A stretch of DNA of 63,981 bases, counting the filler, from Reclinomonas americana ATCC 50394 (Eukaryota): NCBI GenBank assembly GCA_048213135.1. It is 9 parts of 8 records of this genome, joined end to end, with 100 filler letters (N's around TTAATTAATTAA, not from the genome) between each part and the next. Parts side by side here need not be neighbours in the genome. Positions count along the whole stretch, not along the records: positions 1 to 6,009 come from PS015831.1; positions 6,110 to 16,362 come from PS015832.1; positions 16,463 to 25,734 come from PS015833.1; positions 25,835 to 36,601 come from PS015834.1; positions 36,702 to 40,893 come from PS015835.1; positions 40,994 to 49,039 come from PS015835.1; 3 more parts are not named here. One strand, written 5' to 3'. Both the position numbers and the translations under genes were made by a program. Positions 431-45,753 of the stretch are shown here, piece by piece (position 1 is the stretch's first letter; each line of letters opens with the position of its first letter). The notes beneath the pieces are model-generated. The model was not told the origin of the DNA and searched no databases. It saw only the letters and a program-made list of their open reading frames with translations.

Positions 431-468
431 GGTGTGATTTCAACTTGCTTCTTCACCTCGCTGATTGA

Positions 469-3359
469 TCATTGCACGGCTGACAAGACGAGCGTGTGGT
501 GGCCGAACTCGTCGCCCACGTCGAAATCGACAAAGGGTTCGCGGCACAGCGGGCACTGAGCGCCACCGGAGCGCTGTCGGCCGAGTAGAAGCTGTGCGCA
601 GCCTTGGCAGAGTAGCTGGTGACCGCATGGCTGCAGGCGTGTGTCGCGTAAACCGTCGCACATTTGGCAGGCGTGCTTGCAGGCGACGGTGGCCAGCGTG
701 CGCGACTCGGCCGCCAGCTCATCGGCCGACGGGCGGCGCTCCAATTCGTCACTCACGCAACTGCATCACCGAGCTCGTCAGCACAGCCCTCAAGACTGGT
801 GGCCAACATCAATCGTGCACTCACCGCAGTGCCAGCCTGACGATGCGAGTGCACACTGGCGACGGCCACGTACGCCCTGCCTGGCCGTCGGCCAACTCGG
901 CTGCCTTTGCTTCGAATGCATCCACCGCTGACGAATCACCAGCGCCCGCCTGATATTCGAGTCGTCCCAGAGTGGCCAGCTGTGCATGCACCTCGTCAAC
1001 CGGCAAACCCGAGTACAACTGCAGCAGGATGATGCCGAGCGAGAAAATGTCAGCACTCGGTCGCAGCTTGCCGAGAAGCGCTTGCCGATCTGCGTAGCCA
1101 GGATCGCCGGCAACCTGCACCGACATGTGCGTCTGCGTTGCTACGCGCAGTTCAGTGGTGGCATCAGTGGCACACGACGTCACAACGAAAGCGTACGTAC
1201 CCCATCAGTGCGAAACAATTGCGCGATACCCAGATCGGCCACGTGCACTTCTCCGGCGTCGTCGAAGAGAATGTTGGCGGGTTTGAGATCGCGGTGAATG
1301 ACTGTCAACACGCATCGTTATGCACCGCACGAGAAGATTCATGCTTTGCAGAAACTCACCGTTCTAAGCAGCAAAAGTCACGAGAGTGGGACTCGGGTTA
1401 GCACCACTGGTGTCTGTCTCACTGCACAAAGAAACATGAAAAACACATACCATTCTGCGCCCACTGCGTCAGCATCTCAGTGAGTGACACATTGCGCGGT
1501 GAACGCCGTACGCAACTTGTGCAAGTTGGCGACCACTTCCGCACACCGAGCGAAACAGTGCGTGCGGTCTTCGATTGCCATTGGCCGCAGATGGTGCCTC
1601 TGGTTCTCCAGCAGTCGATGTTGCAGATTGTGCTCGCTGCAGGCAAAAGTTGAGCGCACAGTGAGCGTGTTGCAGACAACAAATGTGCTGGCAACTTCAC
1701 CTCATGCGCTCGAGCACCAGGCATCGCTGACCGGCATCCGACTCTGAGAACCCAATCAATCGAACAATACCCGGCATGGCGGCCGCCTGCAAAACGTCCA
1801 ACTGGGCAGCCGTGCAGGGATCAGTCTCACACAAAGTGGCACAGGAGATCCGACAGTGACCTACCTCGCTGGTGAACGAATTGATGTGACGCGCAGCGGC
1901 ACCGTCAAACACCTTGACGGCCACCAGCTGCTTGCCGAGACTACCCGCGTACACTATGGCCTGACCTCCTCGACCGATGCGCTGTGCAAAGCCGTCCGTC
2001 ATGGCAACAATTTCGTCCCACGAAAACGGTCTCGGCACATCTTTGTTGCGGTGCCACGGATGAGCCATCTGGGGGAGGGTGCTGCGCAGCAAAAGAGGCA
2101 AATACACACCACGTCGATTTCCGTCGACGCCTCCTCTTTGTACACGGTCGAGTTCGGCAGCCAGCAACGCTGCACGCTGGCGATACTCGTCCATCTGCGC
2201 CACTTCCAAACACAACAACCGCTGCTGCTCCTGCATGTCAGCGACGACGGCGTCGCGCGCTGCCAGGTGGCCTCGCAGCTGTTCGATCTCGGCCTCGCGC
2301 TGCAGCTGATGCTCATGCCATCTCCTCATGGCCGCCTGCTGCTGCTCCTGGTACCCTCGATGCAATGCAGCGATCTCTGCGTCGTGCTGCAGCGCACGAA
2401 CTCTCACGGCAGCACGCTGCTCCTCCAGCTCACGCTGCAGGCGTGCCACCGCGTCTTCCAACTCGCGCACACGACTCGCCTGTCCTTTTTCCTGAGCCGG
2501 GGACACATGCATGAGGAAGACGCGACGGCTTCAACACGACGAGCAGAGTCGCCAACAATAACGAACCTGTCTCCGTGGCAGCGGCAGAGGTGGCGCCTGC
2601 GGTGCATCCCGACGTGCTATGTGGCAAGTCAGTCGCCGAGAAAAAGAGGAGGGCGGTAAAGAAAAAACTGCAGCTCACCATCATCCGCCCCCGCTTGCAG
2701 CAACACGTCAATGATTCGCCCCCCTCCCAGACTGCGAGCCAAGTGCAGTGGTGTGCTGCCGAGATCATCCCGCATGCTCAACAACTCGGGTGCGCGCGCA
2801 GCCAGCAAGTGCACAACGCCCTCGTTACCGCGATGCACGGCCCAGTGCAACGCGTTACGACCCGGCTCGTCATTCAGCTCATTCGTGACGGCGCGCACCA
2901 TTTCCACTGGACACCGTCGCTCGTCGGCCAGCAGCCACTGCACTGAGTACCATTGACCGGCGTACGCCGCACGCATCAGTGGTGTCCACCCGTAGTCGTC
3001 GGCAAGCGCCACAAGTTGCGCGCCAACACCACTGTCGGCCCACAGGTAATCCAACATAGCAATGTGCCCGCAGGCGCCTGCGTGACTATACACCGATTCA
3101 CCACTGTCGGACATGCCACGTCTGCTCAGCAGCACCTCGGCACCCTGCAGATCCACCAGTTCGCGCAGAGCGCGCACATCGCCATCGGCCGCGAGATCGA
3201 TTACACTCTTGCTTCTCTCTCTCGGATTCTGCTGTTGGTGCTGCTGCGGCAGTCGCCGTCTCCGACGACGATTTTCACTATGTGTGTGTGAAAAGTGACA
3301 CAAGTGAGTCGCGCATGCACGAGAGCGTGGATGAAAAGGAGAGCGCGAGGGCACCTCAT
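469..3359 (-). CDS. Ankyrin-repeat / coiled-coil / IRAK-Pelle(RLK)-like protein kinase / C3HC4 RING protein (multi-exon)
   Basis: ANK exon 2679-3277 (GWTPLMRAA, GRNALHWAV, GSTPLHLA). Coiled coil ~2150-2490. Kinase motifs PFSWDEIVAMTDGF-IGRGGQAIVY, VAVK, IHRDLKPANILL, VADLG, GDPGY, DIFSLGIILLQL, RRPS. C-terminal CQMC...PCGHQLLCQGCA...CPLCR RING. GT-AG introns restore the frame throughout. The start is inferred from a 5-nt ATGAG first exon. Confidence 0.88.
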
Positions 3360-3890
3360 GATTGCTTGCTTGCGGAAAAATATCAATCATGGGAGGACAT
3401 GACGACGTGTGACCAACCCTCGAAGCTTCTATCTCTCCCTCTCTGCTGCGACGTGACCAAGCATGTTGCCTTTTTCNNNNNNNNNNNNNNNNNNNNNNNN
3501 NNNNNNNNNNNNNNNNNNNNNNNNNNNNNNNNNNNNNNNNNNNNNNNNNNNNNNNNNNNNNNNNNTGATCCGGAGTGACAGATTTCAGAGTGTGTTGAAT
3601 TGTGACTTTTTGGCTCGGGGACGCAAGGTGCGCGGGGCAAGGTGGTTCTTTTGACGGAGATGAGAGGAACGCAAGACTGGAGGGAGGAGGGCCGGAGCTA
3701 ATAGGCGACATTTGTATTCGTTTTATAATATTAGCGGCCAGTTTTCTTTTCGAACACACGCTTTTACAAGTGCAATCATTAAACGAAGATAGCAAAGGAT
3801 TGCACATGGTACTGTTCATTCCTCACAAGTGTCCCAAATAATATGCTGAAGGTGCATCCAACTCGCGAACAAGCTGCCACCGTCAGGGTT

Positions 3891-4505
3891 TTACATTCGC
3901 TGGCCCTCCTCCTCATCATTGTTGTTCTCGTTCAGCTCGGCGACGACGGCGACCAGCGCTTCCGCGGCTTGCCGGTGTCCATCTGCCCGCGCCAAGGCCT
4001 CTGCTGTGCGACCAGTTGCATCGCGCATCCACAGCAGATCTGGACACGCGACGGCAATCAATCGAGCAATGCCAGCGTGGCCACGCATCGCGGCACAGTG
4101 CAGAGCGGTGACCTGCGGTGGATTGGAGCCTTCCCGCGACACCGAGCGCACCACCTCCGGCGGACACCTCCGCTCATCGGCCAAGAGCCACTCCACCACG
4201 GCCTCCTGGCCTTCCCACGCCGCACCTGTCAGCGGCGTCCATCCCTCGACGGAGATCTGGGCCGCCAGCCGCTCGCCGACATCGAGTGCCCACAGATACT
4301 CCAAGACTGCGAGATGACCCTCACGGGCGGCGTGGTAGTATGCCGACAGCCCCCAATAGTCGTCCATGTGCTCTGGGAGCAGCAGCGCGTTGGCTCCGAC
4401 ATCGGCCACCAGATGATCCAGGGCTTGTAGGTCACCACGCTGTGCCAGTCGCCAGGCGCGTGGGCGCTGTTGTTGCTGCTGTTGCTGCTGCTGCAGTTGA
4501 GCCAT
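3891..4505 (-). CDS. Ankyrin-repeat-only protein, paralogue of the neighbouring kinase ANK module
   Basis: Single 204-aa ORF with SAYYHAAREGH, GWTPLTGAA, VTALHCAA and the family signature WLLADERRCP. Poly-Q N-terminus. Confidence 0.85.
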   Translation of the reverse strand: MAQLQQQQQQQQQRPRAWRLAQRGDLQALDHLVADVGANALLLPEHMDDYWGLSAYYHAAREGHLAVLEYLWALDVGERLAAQISVEGWTPLTGAAWEGQEAVVEWLLADERRCPPEVVRSVSREGSNPPQVTALHCAAMRGHAGIARLIAVACPDLLWMRDATGRTAEALARADGHRQAAEALVAVVAELNENNNDEEEGQRM

Positions 4506-5426
4506 GTGTGCCTGCTGGGACGCACGGCGTGAGGAGCAGATGCAGGCGTGTCGTTTTGGAATAAATATCGATCATGATCAAGAATGCGCGCATGCAGGAG
4601 AAGGGGAGTGAAGAGGGGCGAGCGACGTGAGACATGCGGTCGTGAACAGCTCGATGTGCACCCCGGTGTGTGTGTGCGCGTGCGTGTGCGTGTGGGAAGA
4701 ATGAGACACACATGCAACGAAGCGAACAGAACACACCAAATTCGACGAATGCGTTTGAGAGGGTATCTGGAGCAGCGCGTGGTTGAGTGAGTGCGTGTGT
4801 GCGCTCACCTTGAATACGCGTAATCGTTGTCGTCCTCCTCACGTGATCACGCTGTCCGCCAAACAACGTCCTGTTCTGTCGATATCCGTCCATGCATGCG
4901 CATCGACGTCGCTGTGCTGTCCGTACGCGAAGTTATGAGTTGCAACCACCCCTGCGTCGTTCGTTTCCCGAGTTGCTGTGTCCAAGCTGCACATGCACCT
5001 GCTGTGTTGTCGCCGCATCACAGGTATCGCTGCGCTGCGGTATTTCCGAGTTGCAAGACAAGTGAAATCGAACTGGCGCTGCACTCACACCTTCTAGTAA
5101 CCTGCTGCCGACCAGTCCGCAATGCCATATGCCTCGCACAAATGCAAGCATCGCTCTCCGCTGCGCTGCTTGAGATGCACCAGCGTTCCAGCCAAATTGA
5201 ATTCGAATTCCCGGCGTCGAATTCCGTTTCCGCAACTCTCCGCCTTCTGCCCTCCTCCGCACTTGCCCGCCGAGAATGCCCAATCGAAAAGTGCACTATG
5301 ATAGCCTCACAGAAACGACACGCTTCAAGCGGCACGGCATTCTCGATATTGCGCGGCGGCGTCCCAACGGTCGAATGCATTGTCCCCGCCCCCTCTCTCG
5401 TCCTCCCTCGTCGTCACGAAGCCATC

Positions 5427-6009
5427 ATGGACAGCCCCGTGCGCCAACGCTTCACGCAGATTCTGGAGACTGCCGATCTCTCCACTCTCAGCCTCCGCCA
5501 GGTTTGCGCACTCTTCGCCGCCCACCACTCTTCACCCCCACTCTACACCTTTTCTTATCCATGTCCACAGGTGCGAGAGCAACTGGAGACCGAGTTCGGG
5601 CGGAGTCTGGCCGACCACCGCGACGAGTTCAAGTCGATGGCGATGGCGTTTGTGGAGCGCGCAGAGAGTGCGGCGCAAGAGGAGAAGCCCAAGGCGATGA
5701 AGGCCGCCGCCGAGGAGAAGCAGAAGCAGAGCAATGGGAACGGGAAAGGCAAGGGCGACGACGCGAAAGCCGATGATGCTAATGATGATGATGATGATGA
5801 TGACGACGACGACGATGAGGAGGAAGAAGAGGAGCTACCACGGAGACGAGTTGTGTGACACTATTCGCAGTGGAGATCGCTGATGTCACTCACTGTGTTC
5901 GCGATCACAGGGTGCCTCGACATCGATGCGTGGATCTGCGTCGGCCAGAGGCGGAAAGAAGGGCTCCGCGGCAGCTCCATCGCCCCACGATCGTGTGGTT
6001 GTGTCGCCC
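5427..6009 (+). CDS. DEK_C-domain chromatin protein, 5' part (possibly UAF30/SWIB-type); truncated by gap
   Basis: MDSPVRQRFTQILETADLSTLSLRQ|VREQLETEFGRSLADHRDEFK with intron 5502-5570, followed by K-rich and acidic low-complexity tracts. Confidence 0.72.
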
Positions 6010-6053
6010 NNNNNNNNNNNNNNNNNNNNNNNNNNNNNNNNNNNNNNNNNNNN

Positions 6054-6065
6054 TTAATTAATTAA
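6054..6065. other. Artificial contig linker TTAATTAATTAA flanked by N runs (also at 16407, 25779, 36646, 40938, 49084, 51335, 62826)
   Basis: Identical palindromic 12-mer with stops in all six frames, always centred in N padding. Confidence 0.95.
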
Positions 6066-6114
6066 NNNNNNNNNNNNNNNNNNNNNNNNNNNNNNNNNNN
6101 NNNNNNNNNTCCCA

Positions 6115-6497: not shown

Positions 6498-6530
<33 letters not shown>

Positions 6531-7331: not shown

Positions 7332-7411
7332 TCTCTGTCTTGTCTTTGCGCTCGATCAAAGTGCCTTTGTGTGTGTGTGTATGTGGGTGAGAGTCTCCGC
7401 CGCCCGACGGA

Positions 7412-14963: not shown

Positions 14964-15011
14964 TGAATAGAAGCACAAAANNNNNNNNNNNNNNNNNNNN
15001 NNNNNNNNNNN

Positions 15012-31060: not shown

Positions 31061-31114
<54 letters not shown>

Positions 31115-31219
31115 CTTTCACTCCTTTTCTCTCGCTCCACTGCTTCTCTCTCGCTCCACTTCCCTTCCCCTCCCGCCCCCCTTTCCCCTTCCGCTCACCT
31201 CCCTCTCCCTCTCCCTCAG

Positions 31220-31602
31220 TCCCCTACATCCTCGGCTGCTACCGCGGCTACAAATCCGGCAACTCCGCCGTCTCCTCGGCCACCACCTGCGTCTCCCGCG
31301 CGCAGTCCACCTCTGGCAGCTCCGGCTCCGGCTCCACCACAACCACCACCTCATCGTCGTCCTCCAACCGCAATGCGGCCATTATCGGCGGCACGATTGG
31401 CGGCGTCGCTGGCGTGGCCATTATCGCCATTATCGTCATCATCGTGTTGCGCCGCCGCTACCGCAACCGCCCACCATCACCCAAGGTCGCCCCGTCGCCG
31501 CTGAGCAACAACGACCGCACCACGGTGACGGTGCAGACGGCCGGACAGCCGTCTACCAAGTTCACGCAGTCGGTGACCGTGGACGCCAACGACAATGCGT
31601 GA
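31220..31602 (+). CDS. Last exon of a single-pass type I membrane protein
   Basis: Ser/Thr stalk, TM AAIIGGTIGGVAGVAIIAIIVIIVL, basic stop-transfer RRRYR, short tail and stop. Preceded by a polypyrimidine tract and CAG. Confidence 0.75.
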
Positions 31603-32265
31603 GCGGGAAAAAGGAGAGAGAAAAAGAACTACTAGCCTGTGTGTAATACTATTGAATCCTTTTTTTTGTGTTGTTTGCAATGAGCCATTGGGCGAAAGGG
31701 ACTTGGGTGAAGGTCTTGGTGACATCAAGAATGGTGTTCGTTGATAAAAATTATCAGAACATTGTTGGTGCATGCTGCAACAATCTCAACAAACAAGCAA
31801 CAGCTGTCTTGACGACCAGTTCGACTGTATTCAAATCATCAACACAGACGCGAATCGTGTGGCAGCAGCAGGTTTCTTGTGTGTTCAAGTCGAGAACTGC
31901 GATCTTCACCGCATGAGCGTGGATTTGACGCACTTGCATAGACGCATAGCGTTTTCTGCGTTCATACACGGCACATCGAATTCGGGAAAAGGCCATAGCC
32001 AGGCAAGCGATGCGAAGCGAAGCCGGGGTCCGGATCCGTGGAGTAAGCAATGCAGTATCCCGAGGGAAGGCCCTTCCTGGACCACCCTTGCATGTCTGAC
32101 TGCTGAGACAGACTTGCACGACCTATCGTGGACTCACCACGTTTCTCCGACCCTTGGACCACTTATGCCTCAACTCATAGCCTGCCCTCGCTCCGTTCTG
32201 CCATGCGTCCAATTGCTCGATTCTTCCCTCGTCTCCACTCCCTCGCACTTCATTATCATCTCCCC

Positions 32266-35200
32266 TCAAAACAAAATGTCTTCATCCACCTCTTCCTCCG
32301 CCGCTCCCCCTTGCTGCTGCCCCTGATTCCCTTGCTGCTCCTGCTGCTCACCACCGTCATTCCCTTCTTCCCCGCCCGCCTCCTCCTCCTCCTCCTCCTC
32401 CTCTTCTTGCTGATTACCCTGCCAGTTATTCGCCGCCTCCATCCCCGCTATCCTCGCGCGGAACCTCCGCAACCACCCCTCCGCGCGATCCGTGTCCGGG
32501 TGATCCTCGCCGAGCTCCTGCCGCGCACGCTCCACCCACGGTCGCAGCACGCGCTCGCCCTCGTACACCTCGTTCTGCTGCATCAGGTAGTGCATGTAGT
32601 TGAAGAGCGTCGTCTGCGACTCGCCGTGCCAGTCGCCCAGCGCCTCGCGCCGCAATTGCAGGCACTGGCGGTACAACTCGCCGGCCTCGGCCAGCGACTC
32701 CAACGTGTTTTGTAGCGTGAGCGAGTACGCCGTGTTGTTCATGGAGAAGAGTGTTTCGGGGTGCCGATCGCCCAGCACGCGCCGACGCATGGCAAAGCAC
32801 TCGCGATCCAGGCGCACACGCTCAGCCGATCGCCCATGGTCCTGAATGCACAGCGCCACCTCGTTGAGTGACACCAGCGTGTCGGCATGCTCCTCGCCCA
32901 GCAGCTGCCGGCGCATCTCCAGGCACTGCCGGTGTAGCTGCTCGCCGTCGCGGAAGTGGCGGCCGCGCACGTCGAGCTTCGCACGCCAAAACATCGTCCA
33001 TATGACGTCGGGGTGGCTGGCGCCGAGTNNNNNNNNNNNNNNNNNNNNGGCCCGTGCTTCGCCGACCCGCCGCCGCCGCCCACAGCGTGTCGTCCTCGCT
33101 CAGTCGACGCCACGCCGTGTGCAGCAGGCCGAGGACGTCGCGCTGCACGAGCAGAATCGTGTCCGTGTCGTTCTCTGTGTCAATGGTCAACAGCACGCTG
33201 CAGATGAGGCGTATGATGAGGCGCTGCGTGCGTGCCACGGCGCGCTGCCCGCCCTCGGCCGTCTCCGACAACCACCGCGAGATCTCGTCGTGCACGCGAT
33301 ACTCGACGCCGGCATCGGCCGCCCGCACAAAGCGGTCTTCGCACAACACACGCGCAATGCTGTCGGTGCTGGCCGAGGCGGCCACCGTCGCCAGATTGGC
33401 CTCGCACAACGCACGCAGAGCACCGTCCACCTCCTCGTCGACATTGGTCACCAGCACCGCCACGCGCTCGCGCACCTGCTGCTCCCGCGCCTCGGTCATC
33501 TCCCCACACTGCAGCTGCTCGCCCACCAAATCGGGCGCCCGCTGTCGCCGCCCGCGCGCCAGATGATGCAGGTGCACGCAGCGCGACAGCTCGCCCAGCT
33601 CCAGCAGCCGCTCCGCTGCCTCCTCGTCCTCTCGCTGCTCGGCTGCTGCCTCCTCCCCTTCCTGAGGAGCAGCAAAGTCGGGCACGGCGCGGAGGACGCC
33701 AGTGGCCACGCGCACCAGCGCCGGGGTGACGCTGACGCCCAGCTCCTTGCAGGCGGTGATGAGGACGAGGGCGCGACGTGCGGCCGAGCTCTGCGACATG
33801 ACGTTGCGGGAGAGGAGTTGGGAGAGGGCGGCGTCGCCAATGCCGGAGAGGTTTTCCTCCAGGCGGGCGCCGGTGAGTTCCGCGGGGGGGCAGGACAGGA
33901 GCCAACTGTGAAGGGGAAGGGATGTAAGGGAAAGGGATGGCGAGGGGAAGGGATGTAAGGGAAAGGGATGTAAGGGGAAGGGATGGAAGGGAAAGAGATT
34001 GTAGGGAAAGGGATTGAAGGGAAAGGGATGTAAGGGGAAGGGATGTAAGGGGAAGGGATGTAAGGGGAAGGGATGGAAGGGAAAGGGATTGAGGGGGAAG
34101 GAAGAAAGGGGAAGGGTGATAAAGGGAAGGGCGAGTGGAAAGGGCGAGAGGGAGGGAAAAAGAGAGAGGGAACGAGTGAGGGGAGCGATACAGGGGAGGG
34201 CATCAGTATTCGCATAACTGACTCTGGTCTCTCTCTCACCCACACACTCACTCTCTCATGCACTCACTCTCTCATGCACTCACTTGCTCACTCACTCACT
34301 CACTCACTAAATCACTCACTCAATCAATAGGGAGGAAGGAACAGGATAAGGAATAGGGGAAAACAGGGGCAAGAAATGAAAAAGGAGGAAGGGGAAGGTA
34401 TGGAGAAAGGCGGAGGAGTGAGAAGAGAAGGGGTGGGATATTGGGGAGAGGGGATAAGAGAGGAAGGAATAGGAAAAGGAGAAAGCGTGAAGGGAAGGGT
34501 GAGGCTCACACTTGCAACTCCCTTGTGTCTGATCACTCGAGCACTCTTTTTCAGTCGCATGCAACGACTTGCGAATCTCTCGGCGCGCGCGCTCTCACTC
34601 TCTCTCTCTCTCTCTCAATCACTCTCTCTCTCTCTCTCAATCACTCTCTCACAATTCACAGAAACTCTTCTTCCTAAAGCTCGCCGTATGCAACAACTCG
34701 GAACTCAATATCATTCAATCCCTCCAGGGAAGGGAAAGAAACAAAGCGAGAGAGTACAGAAAGGAAACTGCGAAGGGAAGGGGTAACAGGGAGAAGAAGA
34801 GGAACGGGGAGGCTAAAAGTGGAGGATGAGAAGAGAGAAGGAGAGACTGAGGACAGGGAGAGAAATCAAATGACTAATTCGAGGAGCGACAGGTCTCTTC
34901 CTGTCTCTCTTGCTGTATGGTTCTGCTTGCAGGATGTTGTTGAAATTCTCCCACCACACAATCGATCATTCTTTGATCTTCTTCCTTCTCTGACTCTGTC
35001 ACTCTCTTCTTCACCGTTCTTCATTCCACAATCTCTCACTTCCATCTCATTGCTGCAATTCCTCGAGAAACAGGAGGAGGTAAAAGCGGAGGAGATGAGA
35101 AAAAGAAAAATGTGAACAGGTGAAAGAGTCAGAGATCTCGTGTCCACGACTGCGGTTTTTCAGCTCTTCCTCTCCTTCTTTTCCTGCACAACTTCTTCTC

Positions 35201-36158
35201 ATCAACTCTCGCTCGTGCTCTCGTTCTTTCTCTTGCTTTGCGTCACAAGAGAGACTATCATGAGGAGAAGAGAGCAGGAACACTTCAGAAGCGAAACAGC
35301 AAGAATGATAGAGACTGCATCAGCAAACGCCCTCCCCCCTCGCCTTCCCCTAAAGTAACGTACCCCAGGCACGCGCTCACTCGCAGCGCACTGTGATGCT
35401 CTCTCTCCAGCGCCTCGACAATGCGCCGGCGCACGGCATCCGACGCGCGGTCGCGCAGTCGCTCCTCCACCACTTGCACAATGTCGTTCTCCACCACGTA
35501 CTGCAGGTGCACACTCTCCACCGCGGTGCCGGCATGTCCGACCAGGCCGCGCAGCTCGTCCGCCAGTGCGTCGTGTCGGCTCGTCACAATGACCACGGGG
35601 GAGACCAGGCCGCTGCCGTCGTCGTCTGTGTGTGTGCGGGAGAGGGAATGAGAGACAAGAAAACGCAAGAGCGTCTCCTTGGCGCAAAAAAAACTCACCG
35701 CAAATCGCCCGCTGCACCTGCTCCAACGACCCGGCATTGTCGAGCACCAGCACACCGCGCGACGCCTCCATCAGCTGGCGCAGACGGTGACGTGCCGACA
35801 CCGCGTCGTCGCCACCGACCATCGAGTCGACCGCACTCGCCATGCGGCGCCCTTCCTCGGCATCCACTCGCATTTGTGCCGTCACAAATGTGCGCAGGCA
35901 TACTTCGAGGGCGTGCAGTGGCTGCGCGAGAGGTGTGCGTCGTCAGCCTCCCTCGAACACGAAAAAAGGAGACGAGGAGGAGGAGGAGTCTCACCTGCAC
36001 GTGCTCACGCACGTCACTCACGTGACCGCGCATCTCCACGGACATGGCCGAGCCGTTCCATCGTCGTGTTTTGAGCATTTCGGTGACGATGAGTTCGGCG
36101 AGGAAGGATTTGCCGCTGCCGCCGGGGCCGGTGAGGACCACGATGATGGGTTGGTGGG
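32266..36158 (-). CDS. STAND NTPase (NB-ARC type) with C-terminal ~42-aa TPRs, NLR-like; N-terminus missing
   Basis: Walker A LTGPGGSGKS, Walker B VLVLDNA, sensor-1 VVIVTSR, MHD-like YRVHDEI, and KLC-type TPRs (RRQLLGEEHADTLVSLN, RRRVLGDRHPETLFSMNN, LGEDHPDT). Confidence 0.85.
33908..34100. repeat. 15-bp intronic minisatellite (aaggggaagggatgt)n
   Basis: Direct tandem copies visible within an intron of the NLR-like gene. Confidence 0.85.
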
Positions 36159-36701
36159 CTGGAGGGGGGAAGGGGGGAAGGGGGGAAGGGGGAGGTGAGG
36201 GAAAAAGGGGGATGAGGGAGGTGAGGGAAGGGTAGTGAGCAAAGGTAGGATGTAAGGAAATGAACGAGAAGCAAGAGTCGAGACAAGAGAGAGAGAGAGA
36301 GAGAGCGAGCGAAACAGGTCTCCTATCACATCCACTGTTCTCAAGAGAGGAGACAACGGAAGAGAGGAGACAACGAAAGAGAGGGAGAAAAGAGAGAAGA
36401 AGAGTAGTGATTAAGTGACGGAAAGCAAGCACCAAGAGAAGCAAGAGTAGAGAGCGACACAGGTCTTCTATCACACCCACTCTTCTCAAGAGGCAAGCAG
36501 CACTCCGAGGAGGCAATGAGAGAGAGAACAGGAGTGTTCTATTTGCAACTCGAACATGATGCTGTATTGATGAACAGCACGATGAGCGGTGAGTGCAGAG
36601 GNNNNNNNNNNNNNNNNNNNNNNNNNNNNNNNNNNNNNNNNNNNNTTAATTAATTAANNNNNNNNNNNNNNNNNNNNNNNNNNNNNNNNNNNNNNNNNNN
36701 N

Positions 36702-37662
36702 GCCATCCTCCTCCTCTCCCGCCTCCTCCACCACCAACTCGCCCACCGCCCACACCGCCCCCTCCGCCACCTTCACCTCGTGATTGACCGAGGCCAGCGC
36801 GTCCACCACCACCGCCTTGAAGATCGAGTCGAGCGAGCCGCCGCCCACCACCCGCACCCGCCCATCGACCGCCTGCACCCCCACGCTCAACCCAAACCCG
36901 ACCGCCGCCTGAAACCGCACCTCCCGCAACGCCTCCATGTCGCGCACAGACCACAGCACCATCTCCCACCGCGACTTGGAGATCAACGTGGTCTCACTGT
37001 CTGGCACAAAGTGCACCTCCTCCACGCGCATCGCATGACGCGCCGGGCCGGCGTCGATCAGCGGACGACTCCACGTTGTGTCGGCGTCGACATCAAAGAG
37101 CGCCACGCGCTGGTAGCTCCCGACGGCCACGTACCGCCCACTGCGCGAGGCCGCCACGCATGTAATGGGCGGCTGCGGCGCGTCGGCGGCATGGAGGTCG
37201 CGCATGCGGCGTGCCGTGCACTGCAGATTGCCGCCCCGACAGTGCCAGCCGGTCCACTCCAAAATCATGCCCTGCGACGTGAACGCCAAGGCGCGCTCGC
37301 CGACCACCAGCACCTGCACCGTGCCGCAGTGATACGTGTACCGGTAGCGCAGTCGCATGACAAAGTGCAGCTGCGCTGTCACACCGCCGTCGTCATCATC
37401 TCCTTCATGCCACTCCAGTCGGTACAGTCGCACCAGCCCGTACACATCGGTCAGCACCACGTGCACGCCGTCCGCCGAACACGCCGCCGAGCGCCACGAA
37501 AAGCCCTTGATGGCCTGCACGAGGCGCACACGCGACTCACCGCTCTCGTTGTGCACCGTCAGCACCACCACGTGGTAGTTGGAGGTGCAGCACAGAAAGG
37601 CAGTGCAGTCGGGGGCGAGGGCGTGCGTGGGGAGGCGGGTGATGGCGTAGACGCGGTCGAGG
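36702..37662 (-). CDS. WD40-like beta-propeller exon (partial gene)
   Basis: Blade-like segments SAACSADGVHVVLTDVYGLVRLY, ITCVAASRSGRYVAVGSYQRVALFDV, HAMRVEEVHFVPDSETTLISKSRWEMVLWSV. Confidence 0.65.
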
Positions 37663-39099
37663 CTGGGGAGGAGAGGGGTGGGAGCGGCGGGGTGGACTGT
37701 GAAGCGAGGGGGAAGGGAGATTAGGGGGAGAGTGGGTAAAAGGGAAAGGACACGAGTGATGGTTTCGCGAGTTGGAACAGCAACATTTCCAACACATGTG
37801 CAGAATGACAAAACAGCGAATTGTGAGACGAGTGACACGTGGACGCGACAAAGAAGAGGGATGCATCAGAGTGGGCGACAACGATGTGTCAAGGAAACAT
37901 GTACAATGATAAAAGCGAGTGAGATGTAACTCGCGAGGATTAACGCAGAGGACACAACAGAGAAAGAGGCAAGGGGCATGGTGTGACGGACAGGAGAGGA
38001 AGTCTCATGATAGTCCGCGGGAAGCGCGGTCGTCAGGGAGACAGCGGAGAGTGAGAGCTCGACGGCCCTTTTGGCGTGTTTCCACTAAAAATAGAGAGAC
38101 AACACGCCAGAAGCAGAGGAAAGGCATAGCATACGCAGCATTCTCTTCACGAATACATCTGCATGCACTCGCTCATTAACTCAGTTTATCACAGTCACAT
38201 AGTCACTCACATTTCTGATTTCTCTTCTTTCTCTATTCCTCTCTCGCACACACTCGCTCACTGTAGTCGCTCTCTCTCTTTCTCTCTCTCTCTCTNNNNN
38301 NNNNNNNNNNNNNNNNNNNNNNNNNNNNNNNNNNNNNNNNNNNNNNNNNNNNNNNNNNNNNNNNNNNNNNNNNNNNNNNNNNNNNNNNNNNNNNNNNNNN
38401 NNNNNNNNNNNNNNNNNNNNNNNNGAGGAGGAGGAGGAGGAGGGAATGGTGATGCCGCCGTTGCCGTTGTTGGTGTTGGCGGGGATGGTGGTGGAGGAGG
38501 CGAGGTTGGCGAGGTTGAGGGTGTGGAGGGGGATGAAGTGAATGGAAGGGAGAAGGGAAGAAAAAGGGGAAGGGGAGAAAGGGGAAGGGAGGGGGAGGGA
38601 AAGAACGACAGAGAGAGATAGAGGGAGTGACGTTCATGCACGTGGGTGCCAGTGTTCTTCAAGCAGGATACGAGTGAGAGAGGGCCTGGCAGAGACTGCC
38701 TTGCTGTAGTTGCTGAAAAGGAAGACAATCTAGTTCATGCATCTGCCGTGAGCTGGGCAACAGCGATTGTTGGCGAGATGAAGGAGTTGACAGACGATGA
38801 ACCTTTGCCTATCATGCGTTTCGCAAGCAGGTCGGCAGTGGGAGTTGTCTCGAATCATTAACAAGGTGGAGCGGAGAAGAAATGTGCTCGCCTGGTCGGA
38901 GAGGGAGACAAGAAGCTGCCTGCAATCGGCCAGGCAGTGTTCTCTCATAAGCTTTTCTGAACTGAATAATTCGGCGCAGGAAGAAGGTGAGCAAAAGAGA
39001 CTTGAACAAAGCGCCTGCTGGTGTGATGACTTCTCCTGCATATTGGTCGCCAGAGAGAACGAGCGCGCGCGAGAGAGGAGAGAAACCGTCACGCTTGCA

Positions 39100-39450
39100 G
39101 CAACTGTTCAAGCATGGAGCCCACATGTGCATCTGTTTAGAAAGGCGAGGAGGGAAAGGGAAGGGAGTTAGAATGGGAAGCAGAAGGACAGGAGAAGGCA
39201 AAAAGGCAACAGAGCACGTGGCGCCAGACAACAGTGATTCTCAAGCACGATAACAGCTGAGTAAGAGAGCACGTGTATCTGTTTTGAAAGGCGAGGAGGG
39301 AAAGGGATGGGAGGTAGGATGGGAAACAGAAGGAAGTGGAAGAGGAGAGAAAGCAAAAAAAGCAACAGAGCAAAGGTGGCGCCACCAGTGATTCTCAAGC
39401 ACGATAACAGCTGAGCAGGGGAGCACGTGTATCTGTTTGGAAAAGTGCAG
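39100..39450. repeat. Degenerate ~155-bp direct tandem duplication
   Basis: cagtgattctcaagcacgataacagctgag...gcacgtgtatctgttt recurs. Confidence 0.7.
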
Positions 39451-39800
39451 AGCAGAGGAGAATGATACCAGAGAAGAGGCGAGCGGCGCGTTTGCCAGTC
39501 CCGCAATAGGAGACAAAGACAGCCGACAAGTTCGACGCGACCATGGGTGTCGAGGCCGGCACCATGTATCCAGACGAGGACGAGAAGAAAAATAGAAGCC
39601 GACAGGCAAGGCCACCCCTCCAGTTGGTTTAACATGGGTGAAGACTGTTTGTATTCACGCAGCTGCCTGCCTTCCGCACCCCTCTCCTCTTCATTGTCAC
39701 TCTTTCCCGACTCGTCTCTGCGGCGAGATGCCGACTGCAGACGTGCATCCAGTGAGAAACACCGAGGTCAAACAGAGGGAACCCCACAAAGAAGATCAGA

Positions 39801-40893
39801 CCTTGCGCGCGTCGCAGCTGGGAGATCAGTCGATCTCTCTCCTCCAGCTGCTGCCGCAGCTGCGCCACCACGGCATCGTGCTCCCGTTGCCGCTGCTCGC
39901 GCTCCTGTTTCGCCGTGTCCAGGTCGCGTTGGAGTTGAGCGATGAGTGCGTCCTTGTCGACAGCCTGCGACGTGTAGGCAAAGTGAGAAACGCAGACAAG
40001 AGAAAATGTGAAGATTTGCAACGTTTTGCCCTTCTTCTGTCTCTGTTTGCCCTTGGTCTGTCTCTCCTTGCCCTTGGTCTGTCTCTCCTTGTCCTTGTTC
40101 CCTCTCTCTTTGCCCTTGTTCCCTCTCTCTTTGCCATTCTTCTGTCTCTGCTTGCGCATGTTCTGTCTCTGTTTGCCCTTGTTCTGTCTCTCCTTGCCCT
40201 TGTCCCCTCTCTCTTTGCCCTTGTCCCCCTTCTCTTTGCCCTTGTTCCCTCTCTCTTTGCCGTTGTTCCCTCTCTCTTTGCCCCTCTTCTGTCTCTGTTT
40301 GCCCTTGTTCTGTCTCTGTTTGCCCTTGTTCTGTCTCTCACTGCCGTTGTTCCCCTTCTCTTTGCCCTTCTTCTGTCTCTCCTTGCCCTTGTTCTGTCTC
40401 TCCTTGCCCTTTTTCTGTCTCTGCGTGCGCATGTTCAGTCTCTCTTTGCCCCTCTTCTGTCTCCGTTTGCCCTTGTTCTGTCTCTCCTTGCCCTTCTTCT
40501 GTCTCTGTTTGCCCTTGGTCTGTCTCTCCTTGCCCTTGTTCCCTCTCTCTTTGCCCTTGTTCTGTCTCTCTTTGCCCTTGTCCCCTCTCTCTTTGCCCTT
40601 CTTCTGTTTCTGTGCCCTTGTTCTGTCTCTGTTTACCCTTCTTCTGTCTCTGATTGCCCTCACTCTTTGCCCTTCTGCTGTCTCTCCTTGCCCTTCTTCT
40701 GTCTCTGATTGCCCTTGTTCTGTCTCTCTTTGCCCTTCTTCTGTCTCCGCTCGCCCTTGGCCTGTCTCTCTTTGCCCTTGTGTCGACTCACCGGCGCCGG
40801 CTTTGCATCCCCACCCAAAGAGAGGAGATCCTTCCCCTCTGCCGCCGCCGCACCGAGCCGCTCGAGCAACTCAGCCACCCTCTTCGCGCCCCC
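39801..40893 (-). CDS. Fragment of a further ankyrin/coiled-coil family gene
   Basis: Exon 40792-40893 (GAKRVAELLERL, matching the end of the ANK module GKQQVAELLDRL) splices to 39801-39964 (LIAQLQRDLDTAKQEREQRQRE, matching NAQLQRDLSAAQHEHKQQQRE of the 43.5 kb paralogue). Confidence 0.55.
40025..40780. repeat. 21-bp minisatellite (ttgcccttgttctgtctctct)n filling intron 39965-40791
   Basis: Roughly 35 degenerate copies between a GTGAGT donor and a CGCAG acceptor on the minus strand. Confidence 0.9.
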
Positions 40894-41590
40894 NNNNNNN
40901 NNNNNNNNNNNNNNNNNNNNNNNNNNNNNNNNNNNNNTTAATTAATTAANNNNNNNNNNNNNNNNNNNNNNNNNNNNNNNNNNNNNNNNNNNNGAGGGGA
41001 AGGGATGAGAGGGGAGGATGTGAGAGAGAAAGAGAGAGAGAGTGAGAGGGAGAGAGAGACTCACTTGGCGTCGGGGTCGACGGAGTCGAGGGCCATCTGT
41101 CTGTACATTGCTGCGGTGGTGGGTGGGTGGTGAGAGCGTGGAGGGAGGGAGAGAGGGTGTATGAAAATCTGAATGCGGATCACAGGACAAGTGGAGGAGT
41201 GCAGCACCGCCAACGGCAGCGAGGACAGGGTTGATTCGCAGTTCCTTTTGCCTGAGTGAGAGGAGTACACGTGGCTGTTGCTCAACAGTGATCACGCGAG
41301 CGTTGCATACATACATATTCAGTTCGTGCATGCATTGACGCATACCAAAGTCTGACAACTCGCGATCTCAAACTCGTTATCGGCCAAGTCATTGACATGC
41401 GACTATAACTCCAACTCGAGTGAGCCAGACTGCAACACAACTGCATGATAATCACCATCTTGTGTGAGCATCAGGAACAAGAGAAAATCGAAAGTTGGCG
41501 TTTCTGCACGAGAAACTGCCGATTGAGGCCAAGCCCATAAAGGAATTCAGAAAGCACATAAAAAATCAAAAAAAAAAGGCAACATGTACA

Positions 41591-44500
41591 TTACACCCTC
41601 GCTAGTCTTCTCATCTTCTCTCGTAATTCGCCCATCACTGACAGCACACTCTCCGCAGTTGGTCGCTCCTCTCCGAACGGCGACATGCATCTGTTCACAG
41701 ATTAGAAGACAGGCCAACAGGTACAACATTCCTTGTGATGCACGCAACTGCACTCCCACTCGCAGTATGCCATGAGCCACGTCCACGGGCCACTCTCCTG
41801 CCGACGAATCAGCCTCCGCCACCGCATCCACAGTGTCCAGTGACCGTTGCCACCGCGACGTACGGACCACGAGCTCGCTGGCCTCACCTCCAGTCAGTAG
41901 CTGCAGCAGTGTGAGGCCCACAGCATACACGTCCAACGATTTGCGTATCAGGCCGGAGCGCGCGTAGAGCGGGTCCATGCGCCGCATGTCGCCGGCTGGG
42001 TGCGACGTGTGCTTCTCAGTCTGGATTGCCGAAATACGAAGGGAGTTACGGTGGTGTGAGACAGAAGAATCTAGTGCTCGGGTGCTGGCGCCCCAGCTCA
42101 CCTCGCCATCGTCCAATTTGTAGACGACATTAAAACCACCGATTTGAGGATCGCACCGAGAGTCGAGGAGGATACTGGAGGGGTTGACATTGCGGTGGAT
42201 GATGTTGTTCTGTGGCAATACAACAAGTGGTGAGCCCAACTGCAAAATGGACAGGGTAAAAGGGCAAAAGCTGGAGAGAAACGAAGGTTTCGGGCTCGGA
42301 AAGAACGACAAGAGAAATAGACACTAAAGTGCACGTGAAGACATGCACCACACAAGTAAATGCAGCTACGACCAAAAAAATCGCATCAATCGCGAGAGTT
42401 CGAGCACCAAGAATAGAAATAGGGTAGCACTCAGAAGCCACACGCACCTGATGCAAGAAGGCCACACCCTCGACAATGCCGACTGCAATTTGCACACGCT
42501 CCATCGCCGTCAACGGTTGCACGCCAGCGGCACGCTTCGTCAACCGCGATTCCAAATCATGGCCACTACGACGGGCACAGAGAGACAGAACACGTCAGAA
42601 TCTCCAACACAATCCACTTTGTGCGAATATTATGTGTGCGCCTGTAGTATTGGATTTCGCTGTCAACACTCACCGCACGGCTCGATATACCAGGCAACGC
42701 TCCCGCACGACATCGTCGTCATCCACCAATGTGGAGTACCCCAGCAGTTGAACGATGCGACGGTGATGCAGGTGTCCCATGATGGTCAACTGGCCGGCAA
42801 GAAAAGAGCGCGCACGTGAGAGAGCGAGATCTGCATACGCCACACTTGCCTCATTCCTCTCTCGTTACGCACCTCTGCAAAGTACTTGTCGGACGCCCAC
42901 GGTGCACTGCTGTCCAGTCGCTTGATGGCCACATCCTCGTCATGGAGATAACAGAGAAATACCTTTCCGGAGGCACCCTGACCGGCCTTGAGTCGAGAAG
43001 AGAAGGATTCGGTGGCCGCCTCAATGTCCTGCCAGGTATACTGACGCAGGAGAATGGGCTCAGAGACTGCATTAACGTCGACGACAATGAGTGCACACAT
43101 TTTTCATGCAGCACAGAAAAACAAATAAAAAGTCACCGTGGAGTGATTCGAGCTCACGTGCAAGATTAGCTGCTCGTTGCCGTTCGGCGGCGACCTCCTC
43201 GCGCGCTCGAACAAGCTGCTCCAAATCGCGTTGGAGGTCCGCTCCCTGTTGTTTAGCAGCATACACATCCTGCCACTGCGCATTTACCCGCAGCAGTTCG
43301 GCATTCTGTTGCTGCAAATCGGCGTTGGCATGCCTTAGAGACTCAATGTCAGCGTCGGCGCTCCGCTTGAGCTCCGACATTGCGTGCTGCAGCTTGGCCA
43401 TCATGTACTCGTACTCTTGTCGCTGTTGGTCCCACTCTCGTTGCTGCTGCTTGTGCTCGTGCTGCGCGGCAGAGAGGTCGCGCTGGAGCTGGGCGTTTTT
43501 TGCTTCCAAGTCGGCGACTTGGCGTGAGGCGGAGGGTTCGCCAGAGACCTACACCAATGGAAGTAAGGATGGCCCGTTCAGCGGCGAGAAGATGATTCAA
43601 CATACGGCACCTGGCGCGGTACGTACGCGTCGGGTTGAACTGGTCAGGAGGAGAGTGGAAGGTATGAAGTGTGAGAATGATGAGAATTATACACGGAGCG
43701 CAAGAGAATCACACCTGGTGGTGACAGCCCAGCGAGGTGTTCAAGCAACTCGGCCGCCTGCTGCTTGCCATGTTGGCGTGCCCACCGTGTCGCCGTCATG
43801 CCAGCCTTGTTGACCATGGGAATGAGGCCGGTAAAGCGAGTGGCGAGGAGTCGCACAATGGATTCGTGGCCACTCATGACAGCGTAATGCAATGCGGTGG
43901 ACTGTGGATGCATGGCACGGTCATTGGTGACCGCCCGCACCATCCTCGGCGGACATCGTCGCTCATCGGCAAGCAACCACTCGACCACATGCAGATGCCC
44001 ATACAAGGCAGCCGCCATCAGTGGCGTCCAGCCGTCGTCGCTGACAATTTGTGCGAGTTGTGGCCCCACACCACTTTCCTCCCACAAATACTCCAAAACA
44101 GGGAGATGGCCTTCCTGAGCAGCACAGTAAAATGCTGAGCTGCCACGAGCATCCAGTTGCTCTTTTTCCAGCAGAGTGTCTGCGCCCTTACGCGCCACCA
44201 ACTCGCGCACTGCATTCATATCGCCATCCGTAGCCAGCTTCCACGCTCTCTGTCGTAGAATGCTGACGAAAAACGTGTGAGCTCTAGTCACAACATAATT
44301 TGCAGATTCAGCGAGCGGAAAGGGACATAACATACCTGCCACTGTCGGTAGCTTTCGCTGCGCAATACGTGAGCATAACGAGCACGATTAAAACACGGCG
44401 CGTGCAAAGAGATCATACCTGATGGTGCTTGTAGTTCCACAGCAAGGCGGTCGAATAACTCGGCCACTTGTTGCTTGCCCATGTCGCGTGCCCATTGAGC

Positions 44501-45753
44501 CGCCGTCTTGCCGTCCTTGTCGACCATGGGAATGAGATCGGGAAAGCGGGTGGCAAGGAGTCGCACAATCGCCTCGTGGCCATTCATGGCAGCATGATGC
44601 AGTGCAGTAGTGTGCGCGAATGCGTCCAGATTGCTGGTTGCCGCCCGCACCATCTCCGGCGAACATCGTCGTTCATCGGCCAGTAACCAAGCCACCGCTT
44701 GCAGTTGCCCACCGGCGGCTGCAATCATCAGTGGCGTCCAGCCAAAGTCGTTGACCATTTGAGCGAGATGTGGTCCGACACCACTCTCCGCCCACACGTA
44801 TTCCAACACGGAGATATGACCACAGCAAGCAGCACAATAAAATGCCGAGCCGCCAAGAATCATCTCCTCTCTCTTCAGCAGAATGCGTGCGCCTTCACGC
44901 TCCACCAACTGGCGCAGTGCGTTAATATCGCCTTCCGTAGCCATCAACCATGCTGGCAGCCGACGATGTTGACTAATGACGATATTGACGTGAGTACCAT
45001 CCGCAAGTGACATGACATGCACATGCAGATTCAGCGAGCGGAAAGGGACATAACATACCTGCCACTGTCGGTAGCTTTCGCTGCGCAATACGTGAGCATA
45101 ACGATCAAGATTTAAACACGGCGCGTGCAAAGAGATCATACCTGATGGTGCTTGTAGTTCCACAGCAAGGCGGTCGAGCAACTCGGCCACTTGTTGCTTG
45201 CCCATGTCGCGTGCCCATTGAGCCGCCGTCTTGCCGTCCTTGTCGACCATGGGAATGAGATCGGGAAAGCGGGTGGCAAGGAGTCGCACAATCGCTTCGT
45301 GGCCATTCATGGCAGCATAATGGAGCGCGGTGGAATGTGGAAAGGTGCCACTGTCATTGCTGACCACCCGCACCATATCCGGTGGACATCGTCGCTCATC
45401 GGCAAGCAACCACTCCACCACTTGCAGACGCCCTGCGCGGGAAGCCGTCATCAGTGGTGTGTAGCCTTCGTTGGTGGCCAACTTTGTGAGTTGTTGCCCG
45501 GCGCCACTCTCCTCCCACAAATACTCCAACACAGAGAGACGTCCTCCCTGAGCGGCATAGTAATATGCCGAGCGGCCAAGAAACATCTCCTCTCTTTTCA
45601 GGAGACTGTGTGCGCCTTCACGTGAAACCAGCTCGCGCAGTGCCTTCAAGTCGCCACTCGCTGCCATCAACCATGCTGGTAGCCTACGATGTTGACTATT
45701 GACGAGAATCGTCGAGCAGCAACCAAGAGTGCGCACCCCTCATCAGACAACAT
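41591..45753 (-). CDS. Triple ankyrin-module / coiled-coil / IRAK-Pelle-like pseudokinase
   Basis: ANK exons 45142-45695, 44419-44972 and 43715-44262. Coiled coil ~43140-43520. Kinase fold RQYTWQDIEAATESF, GQGASGKVF, VAIK, ERVQIAVGIVEGVAFLH, IIHRNVNPSSILLD, IGGFN, DVYAVGLTLLQLLTG, AGEWP, ERPT. Stop at 41591 with no RING. Confidence 0.85.

Follow-up and report, generated by a model that had tools for sequence, protein, structure and literature searches.

Ankyrin modules joined to candidate IRAK/Pelle/RLK-like kinases in the jakobid Reclinomonas americana

Innate immunity in animals as well as plants is relayed centrally by kinases of the IRAK/Pelle/RLK class, and the roles of their relatives in free-living protists are little known. 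Here we describe four genes (genes 1 to 4) of Reclinomonas americana ATCC 50394, found in a 63,981-nt stretch of assembly GCA_048213135.1 (hereafter the window), which share all or part of a five-repeat ankyrin (ANK) module. The module occurs alone, ahead of a helical or coiled-coil linker, and ahead of kinase domains whose best matches point to the IRAK/Pelle/RLK neighbourhood of the tyrosine kinase-like (TKL) group.

Ankyrin repeats accompany TKL kinases in a number of described proteins, TNNI3K and RIPK4 among them. The layout of genes 1 and 4, with such repeats N-terminal to a TKL kinase or pseudokinase domain, is also that of integrin-linked kinase (ILK; ANK plus pseudokinase) and the plant ILKs (excerpted text of PMC5376563), and 15 ANK repeats stand N-terminal to the TKL kinase of Phytophthora infestans PITG_06288 (excerpts of PMC3019232). 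None of these proteins was among the listed Protein Data Bank (PDB) matches of our four kinase-exon queries, and, unlike the ILK-type kinases, the genes described here have a discrete five-repeat module that can be tripled, an intervening coiled coil, and a RING in one member. Arabidopsis KEEP ON GOING (KEG) resembles gene 1 in combining a RING E3, a kinase and ankyrin repeats in one polypeptide; compared by architecture, however, KEG runs RING, kinase, ANK and HERC2-like repeats, while gene 1 runs ANK, linker, kinase and RING and has no HERC2-like repeats (for KEG, the excerpted text of PMC3697954).

Receptor-like cytoplasmic kinases (RLCKs) and IRAKs have a cytosolic kinase domain, as here, and gene 1 would encode an RD-type Ser/Thr kinase (HRDLKPAN). 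Where IRAK and Pelle have a death domain and the receptor-like kinases (RLKs) a receptor ectodomain, genes 1 and 4 instead have ANK and a helical linker. To our knowledge IRAKs and RLCKs do not carry a RING at the C-terminus. The active and inactive IRAK/RLCK-like paralogues of the present family also recall ZAR1 with RKS1/ZED1 and PBL2, as well as IRAK-M, a likeness in kinase class only. IRAK4 is among the much-duplicated kinases inferred for the last eukaryotic common ancestor (excerpts of 10.1101/2020.01.27.920793), and protist TKL kinases frequently fall in lineage-specific clades (excerpts of PMC10463195 and PMC3019232). Phytophthora infestans, which has no known innate immunity, has five IRAK-class kinases, all predicted to be inactive; like the kinases described here these are IRAK-like TKL proteins that include pseudokinases, whereas the present genes carry ANK modules and nothing suggestive of a membrane anchor (for Phytophthora, excerpts of PMC3019232).

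Individually the domains are thus ordinary, and both ANK plus TKL kinase and RING plus kinase plus ANK are already known; judged from sequence, it is the order seen here, together with the multiplication of the module, that appears unusual. In open-access full text we found no description of an ANK module-linker-IRAK-like kinase-RING order, of the multiplication of a discrete module, or of such near absence from the databases. We lean, with modest confidence, towards a lineage-restricted family that is defined by the five-repeat ANK module, adds to it a linker (helical or coiled-coil) and a cytosolic IRAK/Pelle/RLK-like (TKL) kinase, and works by the adaptor and scaffold mechanism set out below. 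The family offers a fusion of an apparently active kinase with a candidate RING E3, natural pseudokinase and module-only paralogues, and one sharply conserved ankyrin module with almost no match in public protein sets; if expression and partners can be established, it would be a tractable entry to ancestral or alternative uses of this kinase class.

Architecture of the four genes

Gene models were built by seeking in-phase GT...AG pairs between coding cores and then assembling them. An earlier note on this DNA had described four architectures, and these were recovered as GT-AG gene models open from start to stop. The modelled genes and their parts are:

469..3390, minus strand: gene 1, ANK module, helical linker, kinase and C3HC4 RING
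2668..3213, minus strand: gene 1 ANK module, five repeats with VQWLLADERRC; Ank_2 E 5.3e-17, 43-44% identity to the other four modules
2135..2482, minus strand: gene 1 charged helical linker, 78% E/K/R/Q/L/A/D, 2 Pro/Gly in 116 aa
825..2047, minus strand: gene 1 kinase domain, five exons
532..675, minus strand: gene 1 candidate RING, C3HC4, followed by 20 residues and the stop
3891..4505, minus strand: gene 2, ANK module alone, 204 aa, with a polyglutamine N-terminus and an acidic tail
3894-4466, minus strand: gene 2 ANK module, Ank_2 E 4.9e-17
39806..40893, minus strand: gene 3, ANK tail (40792-40893, about 34 aa), predicted 827-nt intron (39965-40791) and coiled-coil exon (39806-39964)
40025..40781, no strand: 21-nt minisatellite inside the predicted gene 3 intron (Tandem Repeats Finder: period 21, 30.4 copies, 81% matches)
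41591..45667, minus strand: gene 4, three ANK modules, coiled coil and pseudokinase, ten exons
45143-45691, minus strand: gene 4 ANK module 1, bounds by alignment (modelled ATG 45667)
44420-44968, minus strand: gene 4 ANK module 2, bounds by alignment (annotated part 44420..44952)
43713-44255, minus strand: gene 4 ANK module 3, bounds by alignment (annotated part 43713..44245), modelled with AlphaFold2
43137..43548, minus strand: gene 4 coiled coil, 76% E/K/R/Q/L/A/D, 1 Pro/Gly
41591..43066, minus strand: gene 4 pseudokinase domain, aligned to BAK1 at residue level

The gene 1 model has seven exons, (3390-2679)(2484-1865)(1801-1701)(1636-1512)(1301-1201)(1132-825)(760-469), and, with the ATG at 3390 as a provisional start, encodes 753 aa in a frame that stays open to a TAA at 469; an 89-N gap (3477-3565) lies upstream of this start. 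All of its introns are GT-AG and 63-210 nt long, with donors GTGAGC, GTAGGT, GTGAAG, GTACGG, GTACGT and GTGAGT. G+C at third codon positions (GC3) is 0.67 in the gene 1 exons against an intron GC of 0.55, and across the modelled genes exon GC3 (0.63-0.70) likewise exceeds intron GC (0.49-0.55).

The catalytic residues of the gene 1 kinase are complete (glycine loop GRGGQA, VAVK, the alphaC Glu in SFTSE, HRDLKPAN and DLG), and the 34-aa catalytic-loop exon matches Pfam Pkinase with E 6e-9; by these residues the kinase is apparently competent for catalysis. The class of the kinases was approached by searching single kinase exons, in place of spliced models, against all PDB chains. For gene 1, the C-lobe exon matched IRAK4 best (3.6e-6), followed by PBL2, ScRIPK, SymRK, Pto, BRI1 and BIK1, with AMPK the best match from outside the family at 0.07; the N-lobe exon matched a LysM receptor kinase (3e-3), followed by BMPR2, CERK1, SYMRK and a lectin RLK. 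For gene 4, the N-lobe exon matched LYK3 (2.7e-5), followed by CERK1, a lectin RLK, IRAK1, BAK1 and Pto, and the catalytic/C-lobe exon matched a LysM-RLK (1.1e-4), followed by BAK1, CERK1, BRI1 and RKS1. IRAK4/IRAK1 and the plant RLKs and RLCKs (LYK3, CERK1, BAK1, BRI1, PBL2, BIK1, Pto, RKS1) are thus the best solved matches for all four exons, and on this best-hit basis the domains appear closest to the IRAK/Pelle/RLK kinases within the TKL group. The earlier note had called the kinases Pelle/IRAK-type, a label that agrees with the best matches, since IRAK4 or a plant RLK/RLCK came first in four of four queries.

An FSxxEL..AT..F-type extension ahead of the glycine loop is a feature of the RLK/Pelle/IRAK family. 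Ahead of the kinase we find YTWQDIEAATESFS, which can be aligned with the extension of FTYQELAKATNNFS type in plant RLKs; in gene 4, QYTWQDIEAATESFSS lines up with LYK3 EFTYQELAKATNNFSL column by column, and also with CERK1, and the gene 1 counterpart is PFSWDEIVAMTDGFAQ. LYK3 and CERK1 share the motif (F/Y)(S/T)(Y/W)x(E/D)(L/I)xxATxxFS with the family. By Pfam, ankyrin families are all that lies upstream of the kinase, and immune adaptor domains, such as death, TIR or CARD domains, were not detected. Nor is the receptor layout of signal peptide, ectodomain and transmembrane helix apparent: the models start with ANK and the charged linker, and on inspection their sequences have no long hydrophobic stretch.

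At its C-terminus gene 1 matches the RING family PF13920 (E 5.5e-9; 36.1 bits against a cut-off of 27). The best PDB matches are CBL, MGRN1, MEX3C and TRAF6, and the Cys/His zinc ligands align with those of CBL. The cross-brace spacing of the eight zinc ligands and the Pfam score both mark this C-terminus as a candidate RING E3.

The gene 4 model encodes about 971 aa and stays open from an ATG at 45667 to a stop at 41591, with introns that are all GT-AG and 58-238 nt long; its start Met matches the start of a 'complete' open reading frame (ORF) from an expressed sequence tag (EST), P0039, described below. Of the kinase motifs, gene 4 retains the glycine loop (GQGASG), VAIK, the Glu of alphaC and the motif of subdomain XI. 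Against IIHRDVKAAN and VGDFG of BAK1, however, it has IIHRNVNPSS and IGGFN, the catalytic-loop Lys also being gone; with HRD and DFG both stripped of their Asp and the catalytic Asn missing as well, we take gene 4 to be a pseudokinase. Genes 1 and 4 can be aligned along the full kinase domain at 27-30% identity (E 6e-22), and the modelled introns break the two domains at matching points, for example directly after the Glu of alphaC (SE|L for gene 1, AE|L for gene 4), after LHK/LHQ before HRD/HRN, and before the subdomain XI Cys. By identity and intron positions the two domains are, on the alignment, old paralogues, in keeping with the suggestion of the earlier note that the gene 4 pseudokinase is a paralogue of gene 1. 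Between the two genes, the ANK modules have diverged less (43% identity) than the kinase domains (27-30%).

Between ANK and kinase, the linkers across the family are 76-85% E/K/R/Q/L/A/D with nearly no Pro or Gly. Heptad periodicity was matched by only 7 of 1000 shuffles for the gene 4 linker and by 26 of 1000 for that of gene 3, and this signal above shuffles supports a coiled coil in both; for gene 1 the case is compositional only.

Gene 2, which adjoins gene 1 about 500 nt upstream on the same piece of the window, is a clean ORF from an ATG at 4505 to a TAA at 3891 (GC3 0.70). By comparison with the three ANK exons of gene 4, it could have been the first exon of gene 1. That option was rejected for now, since the donors ahead of the gene 2 stop are weak (GTCGCC/GTCGTC only) and none is acceptable; gene 2 was therefore kept as a separate, ANK-only gene.

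In gene 3, the predicted intron runs in phase from GTGAGT (donor, 40791) to CAG (acceptor, 39964), and the 53-aa coiled-coil exon matches the gene 4 coiled coil (E 0.001, 41% over 54 aa). No kinase exon was found downstream of the coiled coil within the piece. The earlier note had described gene 3 as an ANK-coiled coil fragment: the ANK tail and the coiled coil are indeed present, but the cut lies at the end of the piece, inside the ANK exon, so that the gene itself is not necessarily truncated. The minisatellite is open in all frames, its minus strand reading KGKERQN..., and we considered it as gene 3 coding sequence; this was rejected, as the consensus GTGAGT...CAG borders favour an intron.

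The ankyrin module and its relatives

The earlier note had counted five copies of the module in three genes and a fragment in a fourth, and the sequence bears this count out. Each copy carries the signature WLLADERRC, in the form (V/A)(E/Q/A)WLLADERRC(P/S), and all five lie on the minus strand. Delimited by alignment, the modules are 181-191 aa long with pairwise protein identities of 43-73%, and Pfam Ank_2 matches them with E values from 5e-17 to 5e-43. Searching each module against the whole window with tblastn returned the five alone, with E values of 1e-34 to 1e-89 between copies, a similarity well outside what chance would give.

An AlphaFold2 model of gene 4 module 3, built from a seven-sequence alignment, reaches a predicted local distance difference test (pLDDT) score of 96 and shows five helix pairs, and WLLADERRCPP falls at the junction of repeats 3 and 4, where it covers the close of repeat 3's second helix and the loop after it. 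The top Foldseek matches to this model are DARPins and designed five-repeat ANK proteins (query-normalised template-modelling scores of 0.73-0.78). Over seven sequences, the most conserved 8-residue window of the module is LLADERRC (entropy 0.22) and the most variable is the loop directly after it; helix and non-helix columns are equally conserved, with mean top-residue frequencies of 0.66 and 0.67. That LLADERRC is the most invariant segment, and that helices and loops do not differ in conservation, argues for a shared partner and not for variable sensing. The proposal in the earlier note that these are variable sensor modules is not supported by the alignment, where the signature loop is most conserved and loops are no more variable than helices.

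The first two ANK units of gene 4 (44246-45720, minus strand) form a tandem duplication that includes an intron, with 84% DNA identity over 685 nt. The last third of modules 1 and 2 is nearly identical, with a synonymous divergence (dS) of 0.17 against 0.55-0.67 elsewhere, which suggests gene conversion. Ratios of non-synonymous to synonymous divergence (dN/dS; Nei-Gojobori) among the three gene 4 modules are 0.39, 0.46 and 0.58, and between genes dS is saturated (1.35-2.18). The earlier note had proposed a check for dN/dS above 1, and the whole-module values within gene 4, 0.39-0.58, lie below it; nothing in the few available module sequences indicates diversifying selection.

Relatives of the module are scarce. 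An exhaustive search of 1.84 billion representative sequences with the gene 2 module gave 8887 matches at E <= 0.001, nearly all of them generic ankyrin proteins, and the best 150 include two family members, P0039 and P0079. The first of these, the sole one of the best 150 to show the family-signature motif in a pattern scan, is a EukProt EST ORF labelled Reclinomonas americana, 154 aa long and 71% identical over 75% of gene 4 module 3. The second, recognised by reading and alignment, is a 400-aa protein from an anonymous assembled contig, with about 40% identity and the sequence QWLLADPLRC. The last ~20 residues of P0039 match the +1 frame of the gene 4 modules and not the ANK frame; the EST is thus probably frameshifted, and the real protein would continue as an ANK module. 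Since P0039 is an EST, the module family is transcribed in at least one jakobid.

Other searches returned little. Among proteins of near length, gene 4 module 3 matched P0039 only; among longer proteins it matched 127 at E <= 1e-10, and the 120 of these that were listed are generic ankyrin proteins, 26-41% identical and without a kinase Pfam domain. The gene 1 linker plus N-lobe ORF matched no longer protein at E <= 0.001 among 8000 candidates scored, and of 81 pattern matches from a metagenome scan with the seven-sequence alignment none was upheld by tblastn. By these searches the family is probably lineage-restricted, a jakobid family nearly absent from public protein sets.

Pieces of the window and the STAND-like gene

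The DNA of the window varies from 39 to 65% G+C (2-kb windows) and contains short GT-AG introns, CT-rich low-complexity stretches and 27 N runs. Sixteen of these N runs make up eight identical 100-nt spacers of the form N44-TTAATTAATTAA-N44, in which TTAATTAATTAA provides a stop in all six frames. A longer spacer on the same six-frame-stop core has been used to join scaffolds into a pseudogenome in which unplaced scaffolds stand in arbitrary order (excerpts of PMC3019230). With eight artificial spacers, the window consists of at least nine separate pieces:

6010-6109, 16363-16462, 25735-25834, 36602-36701, 40894-40993, 49040-49139, 51291-51390 and 62782-62881, no strand: spacers N44-TTAATTAATTAA-N44
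36602-36701: the spacer that separates the piece of the STAND-like gene from that of gene 3
40894-40993: the spacer that separates the piece of gene 3 from that of gene 4 and interrupts the gene 3 ANK exon

Genes 1 and 2 lie on piece 1-6009, a STAND-like gene with tetratricopeptide repeats (TPRs) on piece 25835-36601, gene 3 on piece 36702-40893 and gene 4 on piece 40994-49039. Because these are four pieces, the order, distance, linkage and relative strand of genes 1 and 2, the STAND-like gene, gene 3 and gene 4 are not established, and any claim of synteny across the spacers is unsafe. The earlier note had placed the kinase genes near an NLR on the same strand, which is true in window coordinates only, as the artificial spacers put the STAND-like gene on a separate piece. 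Its parts are:

32269..36168, minus strand: STAND-like NTPase and TPR gene, five exons
36004-36168, minus strand: P-loop exon, GPGGSGKS
35676-35930, minus strand: Walker B-like exon, VLVLDNA
35357-35617, minus strand: VIVTSR exon
33050-33877, minus strand: 276-aa helical exon with YRVHDE
32269-33027, minus strand: TPR_10/TPR_12 exon

The earlier note called this an NB-ARC-TPR gene. The TPR part stands, with TPR_10 at E 5.5e-16, TPR_12 at E 4.1e-13 and kinesin-light-chain TPRs in the PDB at 1.6e-14; the NB-ARC part is unproven, as the P-loop exon by itself reaches 16.8 bits, short of the cut-off of 23.5. NACHT scores 14.3 on the same exon, below its own cut-off, and AAA_25, nSTAND3 and AAA_16 match it weakly, as well as NB-ARC or better. 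In Pfam, the Walker B-like, TSR and helical exons gave no match to NB-ARC or any other STAND family. The VIVTSR exon had one weak match in the PDB, to an unrelated hypothetical protein (E 0.27). For the helical exon, the Atlas gave sub-0.9 leads only, to WHD_MalT (a MalT-type winged helix) and DUF7779, and a single-sequence AlphaFold2 model was unusable (pLDDT 42).

In NB-ARC proteins the motifs run P-loop, Walker B, TTR/TSR, GLPL and MHD. Here GPGGSGKS, VLVLDNA, VIVTSR and YRVHDE occur in that order, the GLPL equivalent being doubtful, so that by motif order NB-ARC membership is plausible but unproven, and 'STAND-like NTPase with a TPR sensor' seems a fair description of the gene at 32-36 kb from its sequence. 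Fungal NB-ARC/NACHT-TPR proteins and NPHP3 are the nearest comparison: the gene likewise has P-loop, Walker B-like, TSR and VHD motifs with C-terminal TPR_10/12, and a Podospora TPR chain is among the PDB matches of its TPR exon, but on the single P-loop exon both domain scores fall below cut-off. The piece breaks off upstream, which is why an effector domain at the N-terminus is not seen. Just ahead of the P-loop exon in the direction of transcription, but across the spacer that ends at 36701, a 403-aa ORF (36702-37865, minus strand) has weak beta-propeller matches (Beta-prop_EML_2 E 4.7e-6, Beta-prop_THOC3 E 7.4e-6) and reaches that spacer with its 3' end; were the two pieces real neighbours, it could be an N-terminal domain of the STAND-like gene.

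Explanations of the family, and other genes

In the lineage-restricted family that we favour, the ANK module would serve as a protein-binding adaptor, whose invariant LLADERRC-PP-MVRAV junction loop would contact a family-wide partner. The linker would oligomerise the proteins, and the gene 1 kinase would then be activated by proximity. The gene 1 RING might in turn ubiquitinate the bound target or the complex itself, which would make gene 1 a combined kinase and E3, while gene 4, the three-module pseudokinase, and gene 2, the module alone, might be scaffolds or competitors for the same partners. Several observations weigh against this proposal. The kinase class comes from single-exon best matches, with E from 3.6e-6 to 3e-3, and not from a phylogeny; the start of gene 1, like every exon boundary, is only modelled; the 3.5-residue hydrophobic periodicity of the gene 1 linker was matched by 544 of 1000 shuffles; and the APE position of gene 1, aligned to IRAK4, reads DRQ, with the APE Glu replaced by Gln, so that kinase activity is not certain. 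Two labels of the earlier note accordingly hold in part: 'intact kinase' fits the catalytic residues of gene 1 but not its APE motif, and 'coiled coil' fits genes 3 and 4, with heptad signal above shuffles, but not gene 1, where composition is all that suggests it.

A reading that goes back to the earlier note is that the ANK modules are variable intracellular sensors of microbial or viral molecules and signal through an IRAK/Pelle kinase and a RING E3; the pseudokinase and ANK-only proteins would be decoys, and an NLR would cooperate with the system as ZAR1 does with ZED1/RKS1/PBL2. This we judge quite unlikely. The kinases are IRAK/RLK-like by best match, with PBL2 and RKS1 of the ZAR1 complex among the matches, active and dead kinase paralogues occur side by side, the gene 4 modules show tandem duplication with probable gene conversion, and a STAND-like P-loop/TPR gene shares the window. 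The dN/dS values, at 0.39-0.58, are not strongly purifying; yet none exceeds 1, loops are not more variable than helices, and the signature loop is the most conserved part. The STAND-like gene sits on its own spacer-joined piece and its NB-ARC membership is unproven, and Pfam detects none of the adaptor domains of immunity (death, TIR, CARD or other). IRAK-class kinases, moreover, go back to the last eukaryotic common ancestor and occur also in organisms without known innate immunity (excerpts of 10.1101/2020.01.27.920793 and PMC3019232). An immune role of the family is speculation drawn from analogy. The broadest form of the idea, that a jakobid (Discoba), a free-living flagellate of deep branching, deploys diversifying cytosolic ankyrin sensors wired to an IRAK/Pelle kinase and RING E3, with pseudokinase and module-only decoys, strikes us as improbable; if true, it would mean that IRAK/RLCK-like immune logic, possibly STAND-guarded, is older than the plant and animal systems or evolved separately from them. 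Should the family prove large and variable, it would provide a test for immune-like receptor-kinase logic in Discoba.

A different possibility, unlikely in our view, is that only gene 1 functions and that genes 2, 3 and 4 are decaying or functionless tandem copies in a repeat-rich region. Gene 4 has lost three catalytic residues, the kinase domains have diverged (27-30%) far beyond the ANK modules (43%), no recognisable kinase follows gene 3, and minisatellites and low-complexity DNA are abundant. Decay fits poorly, however, with a gene 4 that is open across ten exons with canonical splice sites, keeps its glycine loop, VAIK, alphaC Glu and subdomain XI, and has modules with dN/dS below 1, or with the clean ATG-to-stop ORF of gene 2 and its GC3 of 0.70; it is the end of a piece, and not a mutation, that cuts gene 3, and the EST shows that a module-bearing paralogue is transcribed. 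That the modules are collapsed or duplicated haplotype copies, or mis-joins, is very improbable, even though this draft contains 27 N runs, sixteen of them in the eight artificial joiners, and one of its breaks falls within an ANK exon. The modules differ by 27-57% in protein, and the closest pair (gene 4 modules 1 and 2) by 16% in DNA; differences of this size are far beyond allelic variation, and the three gene 4 modules lie in one N-free stretch.

Elsewhere in the window, an ORF at 4824-5855 on the plus strand, beside gene 2 and on the opposite strand to it, matches the DEK C-terminal domain (E 3.7e-7) and has an acidic tail. RecQ-type helicase exons lie at 12725-13834 on the minus strand (Helicase_C E 1e-9, RecQ_Zn_bind E 9e-8). 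The region 16410-25786 holds, on both strands, very long ORFs (1879, 1765 and 1274 aa) at 60-65% G+C that match nothing in Pfam, and at 61695-62515 (minus strand) two exon-like ORFs match the HPP transmembrane family, with E values of 1e-17 and 3e-17.

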